Of a stretch of DNA of 42,132 nt, positions 1 through 28,504 are shown piece after piece. The position numbers and the translations under genes were made by a program. Each line of letters starts with the position of its first letter. The stretch's first letter is position 1. Below the pieces are notes generated by a model. The model had not been told where the DNA came from. It saw nothing but the letters and a program-made list of their open reading frames with translations, and did no database searches. The stretch is from the NCBI GenBank assembly GCA_043820105.1, contig JBDREC010000088.1:62001-104132 (forward strand), read 5' to 3'. The DNA comes from Pseudomonadota bacterium. Lineage in GTDB: Bacteria; Bdellovibrionota_F; JAHFAK01; JBDREC01.

Positions 1-294
1 GTTTATAAAATTACTAAAAGCTTTCCTAAGCACGAACAGTACTGTTTAAATCAGCAAATAAGAAGATGTGCAATTTCAATCCCATCTAACATTGCAGAAG
101 GTTTCGCGAGAAAACACAACAAAGAATTTAAACAGTTTTTATATATTTCTTTAGGTTCATTGGCTGAACTCGAAACGCAATTAGAAATAGCAAACAAACT
201 AGCATATATGAATAATAAAATTTATGATAACATAATCACAGAAGTTACACATGAATATAAAATGATTTTAAATTTAATAAAAAAACTAAAATAA
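1..294 (+). CDS. Four helix bundle protein (23S rRNA intervening-sequence protein / Avd-like family), 5' end cut off by the window edge
   Basis: Not in the ORF track. Manual frame +1 translation gives VYKITKSFPKHEQYCLNQQIRRCAISIPSNIAEGFARKHNKEFKQFLYISLGSLAELETQLEIA...KKLK*, with the family motifs FP.E.Y.L..Q.RR...SIPSNIAEG and GS..EL.TQL. Stop TAA at 292-294. Confidence 0.93.
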   Translation, partial: VYKITKSFPKHEQYCLNQQIRRCAISIPSNIAEGFARKHNKEFKQFLYISLGSLAELETQLEIANKLAYMNNKIYDNIITEVTHEYKMILNLIKKLK

Positions 295-316
295 AATAGA
301 AAGATTTTCAATAATA

Positions 317-1735
317 ATGAAAAATATCTTCAAAAAATGGACCCCTCTTAAACCAAATACTAAATACCGAATACTGAATACTAACCACGGCCAGGCCCTA
401 ATAATGTTCGCCCTCTCAGTCATGCTATTCATGGTCCTACTCAGCTTTGTTGCAAATATGTCTCGCTTAACAAACTATAAAATCCGCCTGCAAACAGCTG
501 TAGATATGGCGGCCTATAATGCAGCGGCCATCATGGCTTATTATATGTCGAATGATTCGCCTGATGAGGATTCTGTGGCTGAGATAAACAGGGAAATAAT
601 GATAGATTTCGTGAAATTTCGGGAGGGAGTAACTTTGGCGAATTGTTCTAAGATACCGACTGAACATGGTCCTAGAGAAAACTGTTATCCTGGTATGATG
701 TTAGAAATGTCAGAATGTGATGCTGCCCCTGGAATTGGTCCCCCTTGTACACATCCTGGGGTTGGATCACGGGCAAGTGAATCAATAGATGCATATTATG
801 ATGATTATTTGGCAAGAACCGAAAAAAGACATGAAAAAATCTATTATTTAATGTTAAATGCTTATAAAAACGCAATAACTTCTGCTAAAAAAACTATTGA
901 AGCAAATTTACCTAATGTTGATGTAGAAAATGAACTTATAACAATTGCAAATCCATTAAAATTTATCCAGGAATCTGAAAATATTATCCCTTCATTTTAT
1001 TGCCCTGAAATACAAGCGGGATGGCAAACTGAATATAATTGTTTTTGCACATTATCCTCAAGTCCTGACCCAACATTTATGGCAATGCCTTATGATGAAA
1101 AAATAGGCTCTGTAAACCGCCGACTTATTTTTGACAGAACTAATTCTTCTGGTTATTTTTTAGTAGGCGTTGTTCAAAGTGCCCATGATCCGGTCTTTGA
1201 CCCAAGCACAAAAGAAAAGCCAGCCCCATTTGATTATATGAACTTTTCATCTGCCTTTGGAAGACATGATTTCCCGGCTATGCAGGCCTGGGCAGCTGCT
1301 GCGCCTTATAGAGATTGGAATGAAGTAACAAATTCAAGCGATACACCCATTAGAGACCCCTATTTAAAAGAATACATTCAAAGAACAGTTGATGTAATTC
1401 GTAATTGGCATCATGATCACAAGAGATATCATGAATATTGGAGTAGTCTTAATAATCTACATGGTGACTATTATGCTGAAGGCCCCCCTGATGAAACGGA
1501 TTACGCCCCTGACGCCCTCTTTTACCCAAATCCAAAATACAGAGTTCGCTTCATCCCTCTTGCTGGTGGAGAAGGACCATATGGATTAGGATTATATGGA
1601 AAAGATTCAAGTGCAAATCCATTTGAACTTTTTGGATTATCTGAGATATTATTTGGCAATGATGCATATGTAAATCATTTGGCTTCGTCAGGAGTGAATG
1701 CGCAGAATGCTTATAAGGCGTTGTTTAGGCATTGA
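317..1735 (+). CDS. Tad/Flp pilus TadG-like minor pilin with a Cys-rich C-terminal region
   Basis: Basic leader, then GQALIMFALSVMLF hydrophobic helix and RLQTAVDMAAYNAA, typical of the Tad N-terminal domain. Confidence 0.75.
   Translation: MKNIFKKWTPLKPNTKYRILNTNHGQALIMFALSVMLFMVLLSFVANMSRLTNYKIRLQTAVDMAAYNAAAIMAYYMSNDSPDEDSVAEINREIMIDFVKFREGVTLANCSKIPTEHGPRENCYPGMMLEMSECDAAPGIGPPCTHPGVGSRASESIDAYYDDYLARTEKRHEKIYYLMLNAYKNAITSAKKTIEANLPNVDVENELITIANPLKFIQESENIIPSFYCPEIQAGWQTEYNCFCTLSSSPDPTFMAMPYDEKIGSVNRRLIFDRTNSSGYFLVGVVQSAHDPVFDPSTKEKPAPFDYMNFSSAFGRHDFPAMQAWAAAAPYRDWNEVTNSSDTPIRDPYLKEYIQRTVDVIRNWHHDHKRYHEYWSSLNNLHGDYYAEGPPDETDYAPDALFYPNPKYRVRFIPLAGGEGPYGLGLYGKDSSANPFELFGLSEILFGNDAYVNHLASSGVNAQNAYKALFRH
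355..382 (+). repeat. 4 x 7-mer RAATACY inside the prepilin leader of the TadG-like gene
   Basis: AAATACT AAATACC GAATACT GAATACT. Confidence 0.7.
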
Positions 1736-1738
1736 GAA

Positions 1739-1792
1739 TAAGTGGTAAGTCGTAAGTGGTAAGTGGTAAGTGGTAAGTGGTAAGTCGTAAGT
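1739..1792 (+). repeat. 7 full units plus one partial unit of TAAGT(G/C)G directly after a stop codon; left arm of an inverted pair
   Basis: Read directly; begins 4 nt after the TGA ending at 1735. Confidence 0.97.
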
Positions 1793-1885
1793 ATTTGTTG
1801 ATGAAGTTAAGGTTTTTTGATTTGAATTAAAGATTGAGCTAAGGAGCTTATAAATCAAATTCAGGACGCTAACAAAGAGGAATAA

Positions 1886-2629
1886 ATGAATAAAACCAAA
1901 AACATCCAAAAACTAGCAAAGCCCTTACGACTTACGACTTACCACTTACGACTTACCACTTACCACTTACCACTTACCACTTACCACTTACCACTTAAAC
2001 GCCGTGCCCAAACCATCATCGAATTCGCCTTTGTCGTTTTCTTTATTGCTCTGTTTATCCTTGCTGCTCTTTATTTCTCAAGAGTCCTGAAATTCGCTAC
2101 ATCTAAAAACCTTAGAATTAGAACTGACATTATGAAAGAATATACAACCTGTGAATCCAGATTTTATGATTATTATCTTTTGCAGTCCATGGAAGGAATA
2201 GATAATCCACCCAGTGAAAACCTGGGCTTTAGAACAAATACTCATATTGAAAATCAAGAGCCTTTAAGATGGTTCACAACAGATGGTTCTGGATCAAGAG
2301 ATATTGCTTATATTTACGCGGGAAAAAGCCTTGAGGAGGGAGGATATGCTCCAAACATATTTGCAGATCCAGAAGCAAAGTTTTTTGTTGGCTATGGCTC
2401 ATTTTTGTTAATGTTAAATGAAGATGAACTCCCTGATGCTTCTTTGCCAATGAATGATTACGAATCTTTTCAGGAAGAATATGCAGGTGGAACCTCAGAT
2501 TCATGGACAACTGCTTCGCGAATAGAAAAGTTGAAAGATAATCTTGATTATGAACAAAGGCGGCAATCTGATTACAATAGGGTTTTAGCGGATCCTAATC
2601 GGAATGTTTGGATAAATAATCAGAAATAA
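1886..2629 (+). CDS. TadE-like minor pilin with a repeat-expanded leader peptide
   Basis: GAGGA RBS at 1877-1881; KRRAQTIIEFAFVVFFIALF matches the (G/A)Qxx(I/V)EF prepilin motif plus a hydrophobic helix. Confidence 0.75.
   Translation: MNKTKNIQKLAKPLRLTTYHLRLTTYHLPLTTYHLPLKRRAQTIIEFAFVVFFIALFILAALYFSRVLKFATSKNLRIRTDIMKEYTTCESRFYDYYLLQSMEGIDNPPSENLGFRTNTHIENQEPLRWFTTDGSGSRDIAYIYAGKSLEEGGYAPNIFADPEAKFFVGYGSFLLMLNEDELPDASLPMNDYESFQEEYAGGTSDSWTTASRIEKLKDNLDYEQRRQSDYNRVLADPNRNVWINNQK
1924..1997 (+). repeat. 10 units of CTTAC(C/G)A plus CTTA, in frame in the TadE-like leader; reverse complement of the 1739-1792 array
   Basis: Read directly; translates as LRLTTYHLRLTTYHLPLTTYHLPL. Confidence 0.97.
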
Positions 2630-2639
2630 GTGCTAAGTT

Positions 2640-2724
2640 TGTAGTGGAGGGGCTTGTCCCCTCCTTAATACGGGCAGGGCTTGTCCCTCGCGTAAAAAGG
2701 GAGGGGATAAACCCCTCCCCTACA
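2640..2724. repeat. GTAG-type REP doublet (REPIN-like)
   Basis: TGTAG-tGGAGGGGcttgtCCCCTCC ... GGGAGGGGataaaCCCCTCCC-CTACA: two inverted GC-rich hairpins with GTAG/CTAC feet and a degenerate third copy between them. Confidence 0.8.
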
Positions 2725-3819: not shown

Positions 3820-3842
3820 TGTATAAAAATTAATTAATTAAT

Positions 3843-3931
3843 AATTATTAATTGTTAACTATTAATTATTTGATAACAGGTGGACGTTTTAAGAAAAATA
3901 ATTAATAAGTAATAATTAACAATTAATAATT
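3843..3931. repeat. Inverted pair of 7-mer arrays: 4 x AATTATT-like (3843-3870) and 5 x AATAATT-like (3897-3931)
   Basis: Read directly between the dapE stop and the coaE start; the variant AATTGTT is mirrored by AACAATT. Confidence 0.85.
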
Positions 3932-3958
3932 AATGAAAAGACAACAACAAGAAGATAA

Positions 3959-4570: not shown

Positions 4571-7233
<2,663 letters not shown>

Positions 7234-7238
7234 TTAAA

Positions 7239-7271
7239 TAAGTGGTAAGTGGTAAGCGGTAAGTGATAAGT
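7239..7271 (-). repeat. About 5 units of CCACTTA (sense strand of pyrG) immediately upstream of the pyrG RBS
   Basis: Plus strand TAAGTGG TAAGTGG TAAGCGG TAAGTGA TAAGT. Confidence 0.92.
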
Positions 7272-7373: not shown

Positions 7374-8423
7374 TTAATGTTTCACTCTCCACTTTGCACC
7401 TCGTCCCAATCCTTTTAATTCTAATAATCCTTCTTCTTTCATTATTATTAGTACTTTTTTTATCATAGCAGCACTAACACTTGGGACCTTGTTTGATATT
7501 CTTGCTAGGCTAAATTCACCAGGTTCATTGAGAATTGCTTGCCTTATAAGTTCTGACTTGTTTTTATGGATATGTGTAATTTTTTCCAAACTATCGTTAA
7601 ATTCACGATAAGCTTCTTTAAGAGTTTCTAAAAAATATTTATGCCAAACCCAAATATCATGTTTTGCATCGTGCCAGTTTTTTGAAGATTCCTTTAATGT
7701 TGCATAATAATTAATCTTAGTTTCTTCAATTATCCTTTCTATACTAATATACTTACCGACTCTATATCCATTTTGGTAAAGAAGGAGTAGTTTCATTAAT
7801 CTCGATACTCTTCCATTTCCATCTCGAAATGGATGTATGCACAAAAAGTCAAAAACAAAAGAGGAAATTACCAATAACTCGGGTAATACTTTTTTATCCA
7901 TTAAATCCTGATAAGCTAAACACAACTGTTCAATATATTTCGAAGTTAGAGAGGCTGCAATTGGAGTAAATCTCACATATCTTTCTCCATTTTCAAATAT
8001 TTCAATAATTTCATTATCTTTTTCTTTAAATTTGCCAGCGTCAGAACAAAGTTCTCCCTGCTGGCAAATTTCATGTAATTTTAAAATGCAGCTGGAATTT
8101 ATTTTAATCTGATCAAATGATTCATGTATCCATTTAAGTGCTTTTTTATACCCTAATATTTCCTCCTCTGGCCGATTATTTGGTTTAACATCACCACTTA
8201 AAAGTGGCTTAAGTCGGCTAGAATCGGTTAATATTCCCTCAATTCTATTTGATGATTCTGTACTTTGAATAATGGCGAGTTCTGTTAAAGTTTTAAGCAT
8301 TTCAGGTTTCAAATTAAACCAATACTTTTCTTTTCCTCTTGATTCCATACATGTTCCAATTAACCATGATATATGAGGTGGAATTTGAATTTTTGATAAA
8401 AATTGAGGTTTAAAAGAATGCAT
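7374..8423 (-). CDS. Fic family protein with a C-terminal winged-helix-like domain
   Basis: HPFRDGNGRVSR Fic motif; N-terminal SSNRIEG inhibitory-type motif; C-terminal GRGAKW wing. Confidence 0.93.
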   Translation of the reverse strand: MHSFKPQFLSKIQIPPHISWLIGTCMESRGKEKYWFNLKPEMLKTLTELAIIQSTESSNRIEGILTDSSRLKPLLSGDVKPNNRPEEEILGYKKALKWIHESFDQIKINSSCILKLHEICQQGELCSDAGKFKEKDNEIIEIFENGERYVRFTPIAASLTSKYIEQLCLAYQDLMDKKVLPELLVISSFVFDFLCIHPFRDGNGRVSRLMKLLLLYQNGYRVGKYISIERIIEETKINYYATLKESSKNWHDAKHDIWVWHKYFLETLKEAYREFNDSLEKITHIHKNKSELIRQAILNEPGEFSLARISNKVPSVSAAMIKKVLIIMKEEGLLELKGLGRGAKWRVKH

Positions 8424-8576: not shown

Positions 8577-9326
8577 TCACAAATGGAATAATAAGTTTAT
8601 CGCGATTCCATGCCCTTCATCAAGAATATTTTGATAGCCAAGCTCAAGAATAAGAAAATTCCAGATTATACCACCAAGGCCTGCTTCAAATCCAAAATTA
8701 TTCTCATCTTGTAAGGTGGCTTGAACAGCCGAATCAAGTGAAGCGTAAGTTGGAATATTTCTTCTAATTCCATACCAGCCTCCTGATGCTGTTAAATAAA
8801 GTCTTCCTGGAACAAAATAAACCTTTGGATTTAGGGACCAGTTTAAGATATTTGCATCCCAACCAGTAGTATCTACACTGTAACCTGATGAATTTGGATC
8901 AAGGTCCATATCTGCAAAAGTGATGCCTAAGCTAAAATATTTGGCTATAAAAAAATCAAGCCCCATTTTAAAACCAAAACCATTGTTCCATTTATCATAC
9001 ATATTTCCAATTGGCATTAACCAATTCATTCCAATATTTAAAGCAAGATCTCCTGTTTCCTTATCTTCAATTTTTATAATGTTAATTTCCTCACACTGAC
9101 TTTCACCGTCTTTCTTTCTAAACTTTTTGATCTTTTTAATTTTGCCCTTATCCTTCTTAATTTCAATAGTCACAACTTCATCACTATCAACTGTATTATC
9201 TTGTTCTTCTATTCCCTTGTTCTCTTGTTCCCCTGTTCCCTTGTTCTCCTGTTCTCCATCTTGCGCAAAAATAGAAACAGCAAATAAGATTATAAAAACT
9301 AGAATGAATAAACCTTTAAACTTCAT
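8577..9326 (-). CDS. Outer-membrane beta-barrel protein
   Basis: Start moved to ATG 9326 (GGAGG RBS); signal peptide MKFKGLFILVFIILFAVSIFA; amphipathic beta strands with aromatic residues. Confidence 0.65.
   Translation of the reverse strand: MKFKGLFILVFIILFAVSIFAQDGEQENKGTGEQENKGIEEQDNTVDSDEVVTIEIKKDKGKIKKIKKFRKKDGESQCEEINIIKIEDKETGDLALNIGMNWLMPIGNMYDKWNNGFGFKMGLDFFIAKYFSLGITFADMDLDPNSSGYSVDTTGWDANILNWSLNPKVYFVPGRLYLTASGGWYGIRRNIPTYASLDSAVQATLQDENNFGFEAGLGGIIWNFLILELGYQNILDEGHGIAINLLFHL
9212..9259 (-). repeat. 6 x 8-mer CAAGGGAA-like array, in frame just after the signal peptide
   Basis: Plus strand TTCCCTTG TTCTCTTG TTCCCCTG TTCCCTTG TTCTCCTG TTCTCCAT; encodes GEQENKGTGEQENKG. Confidence 0.85.
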
Positions 9327-16185: not shown

Positions 16186-16226
16186 TCCCCTTGTTCCCCT
16201 GTTCCCTTGTTCCCCTTGTTCTCTTG
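16186..16226 (+). repeat. About 5 x 8-mer TTCCCTTG-like array in a divergent intergenic region
   Basis: TCCCCTTG TTCCCCTG TTCCCTTG TTCCCCTTG TTCTCTTG. Confidence 0.85.
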
Positions 16227-27435: not shown

Positions 27436-28430
27436 GCATTCTAAACAAAACAGGGGAATTTGCTCTTATAGAAAAAATCAAAGAGCTCTTTCCCAAAAAT
27501 TATCCTGATGAGGTCATTTGTGGTATTGGCGATGATACTGCTATTATTAAAAAGGATGATAATCACTCAATTTTAGCAACAGTGGATATGCAAGTTGAGG
27601 GAAAACATTTTGACACAAAATATGCAAGTTTCTATGAAATTGGGCAAAAAGCACTTTCTGTTAATATAAGTGATATCGCTGCAATGGGAGGAAAACCAAG
27701 TTTTGCATTTATTTCACTTGGTCTGCCAGGCAATTTAGAAACAAATACTTTTGATCAAATCATGCATGGCATAAAAAAAGAAGCAACAGAATATCAGATA
27801 AGTGTACTTGGTGGTAATATTGCAAAAACAAATCAAATTATCATTGATATATTTTTAATGGGAGAAATCAATACCAAGCACATCCTTAAAAGAAGTGGAG
27901 CAAAAATAAGTGATAGAATTTTCGTCACCGGAAACCTTGGATCATCGGCTCTTGGTTTAAAAATGTTACAGGATTTTGGGAAAGACTATCCAAGAGAATT
28001 TGAAAACTCTGTAAAGGCTCACTTAAAACCAGTTCCAAGAATAAAGGCAGGACAAGTAATAGCAAAAGCTGGCTATGCAACAGCAATGATAGATATTAGT
28101 GATGGCCTTATCCAAGATCTGGAACATGTTTGCGAAGCAAGTAAAGTTGGTGCAATTATTTATAAAGATAAATTGCCTGTTGCCCATGATGTGCAAACTC
28201 CAGAATATAGCATAAAAGATTTGGCTCTATGTGGAGGTGAAGATTATGAACTGCTTTTTACCATGAAAAGTGACACCTCCATTGGCCTTATAGAATCTCT
28301 TTTTAAGGAGAGCGGAGTTAAGCTTACAGAGATTGGCAAGATTACAGATTATGAGGATAAGATTAAGATTTTGGATAAAGATGGTGGTGATGTTAAGCTA
28401 TTAAGCAAAGGTTGGGACCATTATAGGTAG
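27432..28430 (+). CDS. thiL: Thiamine-monophosphate kinase
   Basis: GEFALI, GIGDDTA, NISDIAAMGG, IDISDGL, GGEDYELLFT. Confidence 0.96.
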   Translation: MSILNKTGEFALIEKIKELFPKNYPDEVICGIGDDTAIIKKDDNHSILATVDMQVEGKHFDTKYASFYEIGQKALSVNISDIAAMGGKPSFAFISLGLPGNLETNTFDQIMHGIKKEATEYQISVLGGNIAKTNQIIIDIFLMGEINTKHILKRSGAKISDRIFVTGNLGSSALGLKMLQDFGKDYPREFENSVKAHLKPVPRIKAGQVIAKAGYATAMIDISDGLIQDLEHVCEASKVGAIIYKDKLPVAHDVQTPEYSIKDLALCGGEDYELLFTMKSDTSIGLIESLFKESGVKLTEIGKITDYEDKIKILDKDGGDVKLLSKGWDHYR

Positions 28431-28504
28431 TAAGTCATAAGTGGTAAGTTGTAAGTTGTAAGTTGTAAGTATAAATCTTTAAAACACTTACCACTTACCA
28501 CTTA
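28431..28504. repeat. Inverted pair: about 6 TAAGTNN units (28431-28470), 15-nt spacer, about 3 CCACTTA units (28486-28504)
   Basis: Fills most of the thiL-anmK intergenic region. Confidence 0.93.

Follow-up and report, generated by a model that had tools for sequence, protein, structure and literature searches.

The closest described systems to the cassette discussed here are the ORF-bearing intervening sequences (IVSs) of 23S rRNA, such as the helix-45 IVS of Coxiella burnetii with its S23p ORF and those of Leptospira and Brucella, which encode proteins of the same family, PF05635, a family without known function (PMC4990558). These elements measure 428-444 nt, compared with an arm-to-arm span of 545 nt for the cassette, and terminal inverted repeats are present in both (PMC4990558). 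Tandem heptamers have been noted upstream of the Coxiella ORF, as in the cassette, and cutting by RNase III is established for that IVS (PMC4990558). Unlike these IVSs, however, the cassette lies outside rRNA, its imperfect arms bear no mark of selection for pairing, and its sister pairs without a gene number in the dozens. Heptamer repeats, for their part, are described as over-represented in bacteria and little studied (PMC4692102). Those of Xanthomonas and Nostoc (PMC4692102) and the TAACTGA repeats of Beggiatoaceae (PMC4679880) form intergenic 7-nt arrays on both strands, as here, and the Xanthomonas arrays, mostly of four units and with 70-75 convergent pairs (PMC4692102), come close to the mode of four linkers and five cores that we describe below. 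They have been read as G-quadruplexes or regulatory sites (PMC4692102, PMC4679880), whereas the units found here are A+T-rich and have no G-tracts; the accessible text on the Beggiatoaceae repeats does not contain the term "helix bundle" (PMC4679880).

Two further systems are comparable in part. Avd of diversity-generating retroelements (DGRs) shares its fold with the 118-aa protein of the cassette (4DWL, TM 0.79) and is a pentamer that binds nucleic acid via equivalent residues of different protomers (bioRxiv 2023.10.23.563531), but sequence identity is 15%, the protein falls under the Avd family cut-off, and the genome has no reverse transcriptase match. REPIN-RAYT systems likewise combine many dispersed short inverted intergenic pairs with a rare gene-linked copy (bioRxiv 2022.05.22.493013), although the arms here are tandem heptamers rather than palindromic REPs and the gene between them does not encode a Y1 transposase. 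The protein family, the ORF-bearing IVSs and heptamer repeats are thus known separately, with one IVS reported to have heptamers; the match between five cores and five subunits and the negative covariation tests were worked out here. Our literature search, in which subscription journals were thinly covered and the repeat-position supplements of PMC4692102 and PMC4679880 were outside scope, returned no paper on a cassette outside rRNA or on a five-core rule.

The window, a stretch of 42,132 nt from contig C88 of the source genome (3.8 Mb, 92.9% complete; contigs are written C plus a number), opens inside the four-helix-bundle gene: positions 1-294 of the forward strand are the 3' part of a 5'-open frame that falls in a gap of the ORF track. 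The preliminary description had recognised a four-helix-bundle CDS ending at 294, and the frame and the family scores given below bear this out. It had also reported a RAATACY array about 60 nt past the gene, which Tandem Repeats Finder recovered as 4.3 copies of AAATACT at 355-384, and had predicted a complementary (AGTATTY)n array upstream of the window, which we found as the left arm (Table 1), beginning 8 nt past the TadE-like stop codon. With both arms located, the gene proves, as had been proposed, to be enclosed by inverted heptamer arrays that delimit a cassette; the cassette is asymmetric in core number, with six cores in the left arm and five in the right. The "before-start" position assigned to the downstream array, by contrast, proved wrong, as the right arm lies inside the leader of ORF 317-1735, ahead of the G|Q motif, and the Tad match begins at residue 25. 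There is no ATG, GTG or TTG in frame between the right arm and the G|Q motif, and, judging from the sequence, the start codon of the TadG-like gene would fall within the cassette, downstream of the four-helix-bundle stop and ahead of the right arm. The pseudopilin genes flanking the cassette have arrays in their leaders too.

Table 1. Features of the tadE-tadG cassette and of other inverted pairs in the window (positions are those of the window unless prefixed by C88)
Feature	Position	Strand	Details
TadE-like gene, array in its leader	C88:61228-61830		upstream, outside window
Left arm	C88:61838-61878		six GT cores, 7-nt pitch, GGT-ATTT-GGT-ATTC-AGT-ATTT-AGT-ATTC-AGT-ATTC-GGT; ~120-160 nt before window
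Four-helix-bundle gene, intact	C88:61938-62294 (start 62 nt before window)	+	118 aa, TIGR02436/PF05635
Right arm	352-384	+	five AC cores, ACC-AAAT-ACT-AAAT-ACC-GAAT-ACT-GAAT-ACT; translated PNTKYRILNT in TadG-like leader
TadG-like pseudopilin gene	317-1735	+	PF13400 (Pfam Tad) at residues 25-71
Empty pair, family other than D	1739-1997	.	TAAGTGG 1739-1792 / CTTACCA 1924-1997; 131-nt loop
Empty pair, AT-rich family	3828-3934	.	TAATTAT / AATAATT; 26-nt loop
Empty pair of A-like units	28430-28504	.	14-nt loop

The remaining inverted pairs of the window had been taken for empty or decayed versions of this cassette. They do resemble empty versions, for which intermediates exist elsewhere (C30 and locus L018), but their heptamer families differ from that of the cassette, which excludes decay of this particular copy as their origin; in the pair at 1739-1997, whose right arm is translated within the leader of ORF 1886-2629, the 131-nt loop holds no four-helix-bundle remnant (E 0.59). 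By eye, no target-site duplication is evident at the cassette, the orthologous junctions available for comparison all holding arms, and a promoter and terminator scan gave counts no higher than in shuffles. Elsewhere in the window, an 8-mer family (GAACAAGG-like) occurs in coding sequences and is translated (5141-5197, 9199-9257 and 16186-16226), and a Fic-domain gene at 7374-8423 adjoins a solo A-family arm at 7239-7271.

The protein scores 132.9 bits against TIGR02436 (cut-off 24) and 135.7 bits against PF05635 (cut-off 33.8), and its predicted structure consists of four helices (pLDDT 97.4). The closest solved relative is Xcc0516 (2GSC; TM 0.93, 39% identity), whose entry contains five chains and which is a homopentamer (PMC4990558). 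By likeness to 2GSC, the protein of the cassette is most likely a five-subunit ring. We know of no nuclease or recombinase motif in the four-helix-bundle fold.

The explanation we prefer, and to which we give roughly even chances, is that the locus represents a small insertable cassette in its gene-carrying state, the arms of which would be read as single-stranded DNA (ssDNA) by a ring of its own protein, making the gene a component and not cargo. The mobile unit would consist of the left arm, the four-helix-bundle gene and the inverted right arm. A five-subunit ring of the 2GSC type would bind one arm as ssDNA, one core per subunit, and both ends would represent the identical site on opposite strands, as in transposon ends, with no need for the arms to pair. 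The TRAP ring serves as an analogy for a ring with one core per subunit. In the Avd pentamer, flipped-out RNA bases are found in crevices between protomers (bioRxiv 2023.10.23.563531). Cassettes would settle at gene junctions and duplicate in tandem, and deletion of the gene would leave empty pairs and solo arms, a course for which intermediates speak. Host enzymes probably cut and join the DNA, a proposal made because no catalytic partner was found beside the gene, and this is the weakest step. At the tadE-tadG junction, a D-family cassette would have entered and would now provide tadG with its start codon and with a portion of its leader, which is presumably cleaved off.

Whether the arms act as an RNA stem or as DNA ends is the question that separates this explanation from the first alternative, an mRNA-level intervening sequence in which the arms form a stem, RNase III excises the gene message and the protein is a passenger or RNA chaperone. 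A long stem closing the gene could indeed form from the arms, as the left and right arms give a duplex of -60.7 kcal/mol, a value reached by 0 of 500 shuffles (-38.6 +/- 4.4). The Coxiella IVS, with its S23p ORF, upstream tandem heptamers and RNase III cleavage (PMC4990558), offers a precedent, and the related Avd binds an RNA stem-loop (bioRxiv 2023.10.23.563531). There is, however, no surplus of complementarity: empty D pairs (n = 15, four of them near-identical) show 227 matches, which is not above the 239 +/- 4 obtained with same-family arms from elsewhere. In-register covariation is absent (0.649 against 0.645 +/- 0.008 in 99 cassettes), and on the coding strand of 73 cassettes G·U occurs 92 times and A·C 94 times, showing no G·U preference. 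Hybrid pairs of a D and an A arm exist (C42:4638 and C98:328), and cutting a stem at this locus would take away the tadG start codon and leader. We therefore regard excision at the mRNA level as unlikely. The analogy with RNA stems and rRNA IVSs drawn in the preliminary description is not supported for this locus, given the same covariation and G·U results and the location, since the flanks are protein genes, not 23S rRNA, and an Rfam search of the locus gave zero matches. Two copies of a putative binding site on opposite DNA strands fit these results, and the near-even split of outer arm ends between stops and starts given below, better than a selected RNA stem, and the absence of pairing covariation moves the weight from processing of RNA to recognition of DNA ends; cutting of the arms by RNase III as a side effect may occur and stays compatible with the pairing results.

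The second alternative, also unlikely and ranked after the first, makes the gene cargo: a transposase of the host, such as a Y1 HUH enzyme, would act in trans on REPIN- or MITE-like arms, which would have captured the gene once and carried it along. It draws on the abundance of pairs without a gene. The 78 inverted pairs within 2.5 kb in the source genome include 37 with loops shorter than 50 nt, and filled pairs are far fewer than empty ones. The same genome has 13 Y1_Tnp matches, and linkage alone could explain why arm units are clade-specific. Yet no listed period-7 array lies within 250 nt of any of these 13 matches, several of which stand at contig ends. Moreover, the only ORFs of at least 80 aa inside pairs with loops of up to 600 nt are four-helix-bundle genes, empty pairs follow PF05635 across genomes, and the five-core mode would be left unexplained. 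Coding remnants were sought in 31 loops of 20-600 nt, where two known genes alone scored and the best other match had E 0.02. Enrichment of arrays at paralogues, which had been anticipated, is seen in that 3 of the 16 PF05635 matches (on C88, C30 and C43) are bracketed by heptamer arms, compared with 13 of ~3,007 other ORFs, many of which, by eye, have outward-facing arms of neighbouring sites. Most of the remaining PF05635 matches adjoin hexamer arrays. Three longer paralogues with N-terminal extensions have no arrays (C77:11848, C36:4772 and C1:483) and are possibly domesticated.

Heptamer arrays exceed chance in the source genome, which has 553 arrays of period 7, 95 of period 6 and 46 of period 8. 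Counting against the preferred explanation, families A, B and E, the commonest there, have no matching gene in the 92.9% complete assembly. Eleven arrays lie within 60 nt of contig ends, and further cassettes may therefore be absent from the assembly. A GxxExxY partner gene was not found in this genome, and of 11 candidate viral carriers examined none was confirmed. A GTAG-type REP-like palindrome past the tadE-like gene (window 2640-2705) matches repeats that flank a Y1 transposase gene at C19:60557-61054; a separate REP-RAYT-like system is likely present in the source genome.

Comparison with relatives shows that the tadE-tadG cassette is one copy among many. Full 220-nt flanks were available for 130 of 159 close loci, and 85 of the 130 have inverted repeats, predominantly of period 7, compared with 6.7% of mismatched pairs; of the 143 loci in a broader set, flanks were complete for 134, and inverted repeats were called at 75 of these, compared with 0.6% of mismatched pairs. 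GT chains of at least four on both arms were found in 72 of 126 close relatives and in 27 of 133 broader ones. The deduplicated close loci belong to 14 phyla, counting the 67 of 126 for which a phylum is named. Sub-clades of four-helix-bundle proteins each have their own arm units, and among the 119 of 259 loci that have clear period-7 arms, units become less alike as the proteins grow more distant (Spearman -0.39; null sd 0.047). Between phyla the correlation is weak (rho -0.10 for 394 pairs drawn from 34 loci), and for 25 of the 34 it is the nearest other-phylum protein whose unit is the more similar. Because gene and arms are physically linked, co-inheritance alone could explain this co-variation, and the counts include kin, which are not independent of one another.

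Empty pairs can be followed independently of the gene. PF05635 matched 102 of 301 sampled genomes, and empty five-core GT pairs occur in 34 of these 102 but in only 8 of the 199 negative genomes (odds ratio 11.9, counts inflated by kin). The pattern covers GT-core families only, and 68 of the 102 positive genomes have no GT-type pair; of the eight negative genomes that matched, at least two contain single long arrays. As a control, the same pattern at a 6-nt pitch was found in 0 of 41 genomes, compared with 7 of the same 41 at 7 nt.

The neighbours of the relatives argue against a special tie to pilin loci. Among the 80 of 117 downstream ORFs scanned against Pfam, most are unrelated housekeeping genes, and pilus or secretion genes account for three (2 N_methyl, 1 T2SSF); a pilin motif is present in 2 of the 117. 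The pilin context is incidental, and the tadE-tadG junction is a tolerant landing site.

How freely such sites turn over is apparent from G001 and G002, two genomes of the same order as the source. In both, the tadE-tadG junction lacks a four-helix-bundle gene and is occupied by an empty pair, of GGTTAGC units in G001 and of GGATTTG units in G002, each matching the family that flanks a cassette elsewhere in its own genome. G001 and G002 also differ at a second orthologous junction, where both have a four-helix-bundle gene but neither the gene nor its arms are the same (L011 and L015). Among 259 loci, 21 have a direct-repeat layout. At C30 the left arm and leader are repeated after the gene, and at L018 a full four-helix-bundle gene is followed by an arm-bounded truncated second copy. 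We infer that empty pairs stem from duplication and gene loss. Nested pairs at C28:18587 and C90:92102, in which a D-family empty pair lies within arms of another family, suggest repeated insertion at one spot. Whole empty pairs also appear to lie in frame within pseudopilin leaders at L008:3358-3500 (G001) and L009 ~1786-1896 (G002), and such leaders therefore tolerate these insertions. Two contig joints, found in a comparison of three contig sets and skipping 481 and 486 nt, were considered as excisions of the gene here but proved by their spacer letters to be other empty sites, C10:81015-81042 and C105; no piece in the three sets covers the whole stretch.

The same observations bear on a third alternative, a domesticated regulatory network in which the ring would bind mRNAs, its own included, at heptamer tracts close to starts or stops and control translation or decay. 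Arms do lie close to gene ends, with a median outer distance of 18 nt (n = 241), and translational regulation has been proposed for the Beggiatoaceae TAACTGA repeats (PMC4679880). However, the outer end of an arm faces a stop in 124 cases and a start in 117, so that GT cores after stops and AC cores before starts are nearly equal in number and no single RNA motif would serve both. Different families occupy orthologous junctions of related genomes, and the neighbouring genes have no common function. We consider a regulatory network distinctly improbable. That the locus is part of a DGR acting on pilins, as the relation to Avd had suggested, is hardly credible despite the likeness of fold: the Avd family model gives 32.9 bits against a cut-off of 80, and the 92.9% complete genome has 0 PF00078 (RVT_1) matches, the reverse transcriptase that had been recommended as a check; since none was found, the locus is not a DGR.

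The proposed insertable cassette with a ring-forming protein draws further on the number of cores in each arm. Among 144 D-family chains of the source genome, 63 have exactly five GT cores, 19 have four and 15 have six. Based on profiles, six of the seven families (A, C, D, E, F and G) most often have arms of five cores joined by four linkers, F and G being represented by 8-9 arrays each, and family B is bimodal, with five cores in 42 and six in 48. Under other core choices C and G peak at four and B at six, and the count therefore depends on how the core is defined. Around the 126 close relatives, five is the commonest GT chain length on either arm (45 and 46), with 6 and 6 chains of length six, and in the close clade the [TG][AC]GT core is kept while linkers vary. 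Because period-8 cassettes peak at four cores (16 arms, compared with 12 at five), a fixed length of ~31-35 nt explains the arms no worse than a count of five does.

We put forward, tentatively and as a rather doubtful generalisation, that these loci represent widespread transposase-free mobile cassettes, in which a pentameric ring would read five cores at 7-nt pitch as ssDNA at each end, with a clade-specific core; gene-less remnants would then make up much of the bacterial heptamer excess, and rRNA IVSs and Avd would be offshoots. If five cores do correspond to five subunits, this would tie the PF05635 family to the unexplained heptamer repeats of bacteria, and the match predicts substrate, stoichiometry and a clade-specific code, all within reach of one direct binding test.

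Several minor observations concern other repeats and genes near these systems. The source genome contains a second cassette class, in which two head-to-head four-helix-bundle genes surround a long palindrome, with hexamer arrays outermost (C39:65842-66593, C68:40181-40842 and C75:24086-24485); the palindrome is clear at C39 and C68, its centre is deleted at C75, and several copies are broken. Ahead of the tad operon lies a second palindromic repeat (C88:61136-61204), similar pieces of which occur in public contigs. Upstream of the operon, at C88:53631-61060, paralogous lipoprotein-like genes with DSDGDG motifs are arranged as three tandem pairs, and the tad operon of G001 is likewise preceded by related-looking genes.
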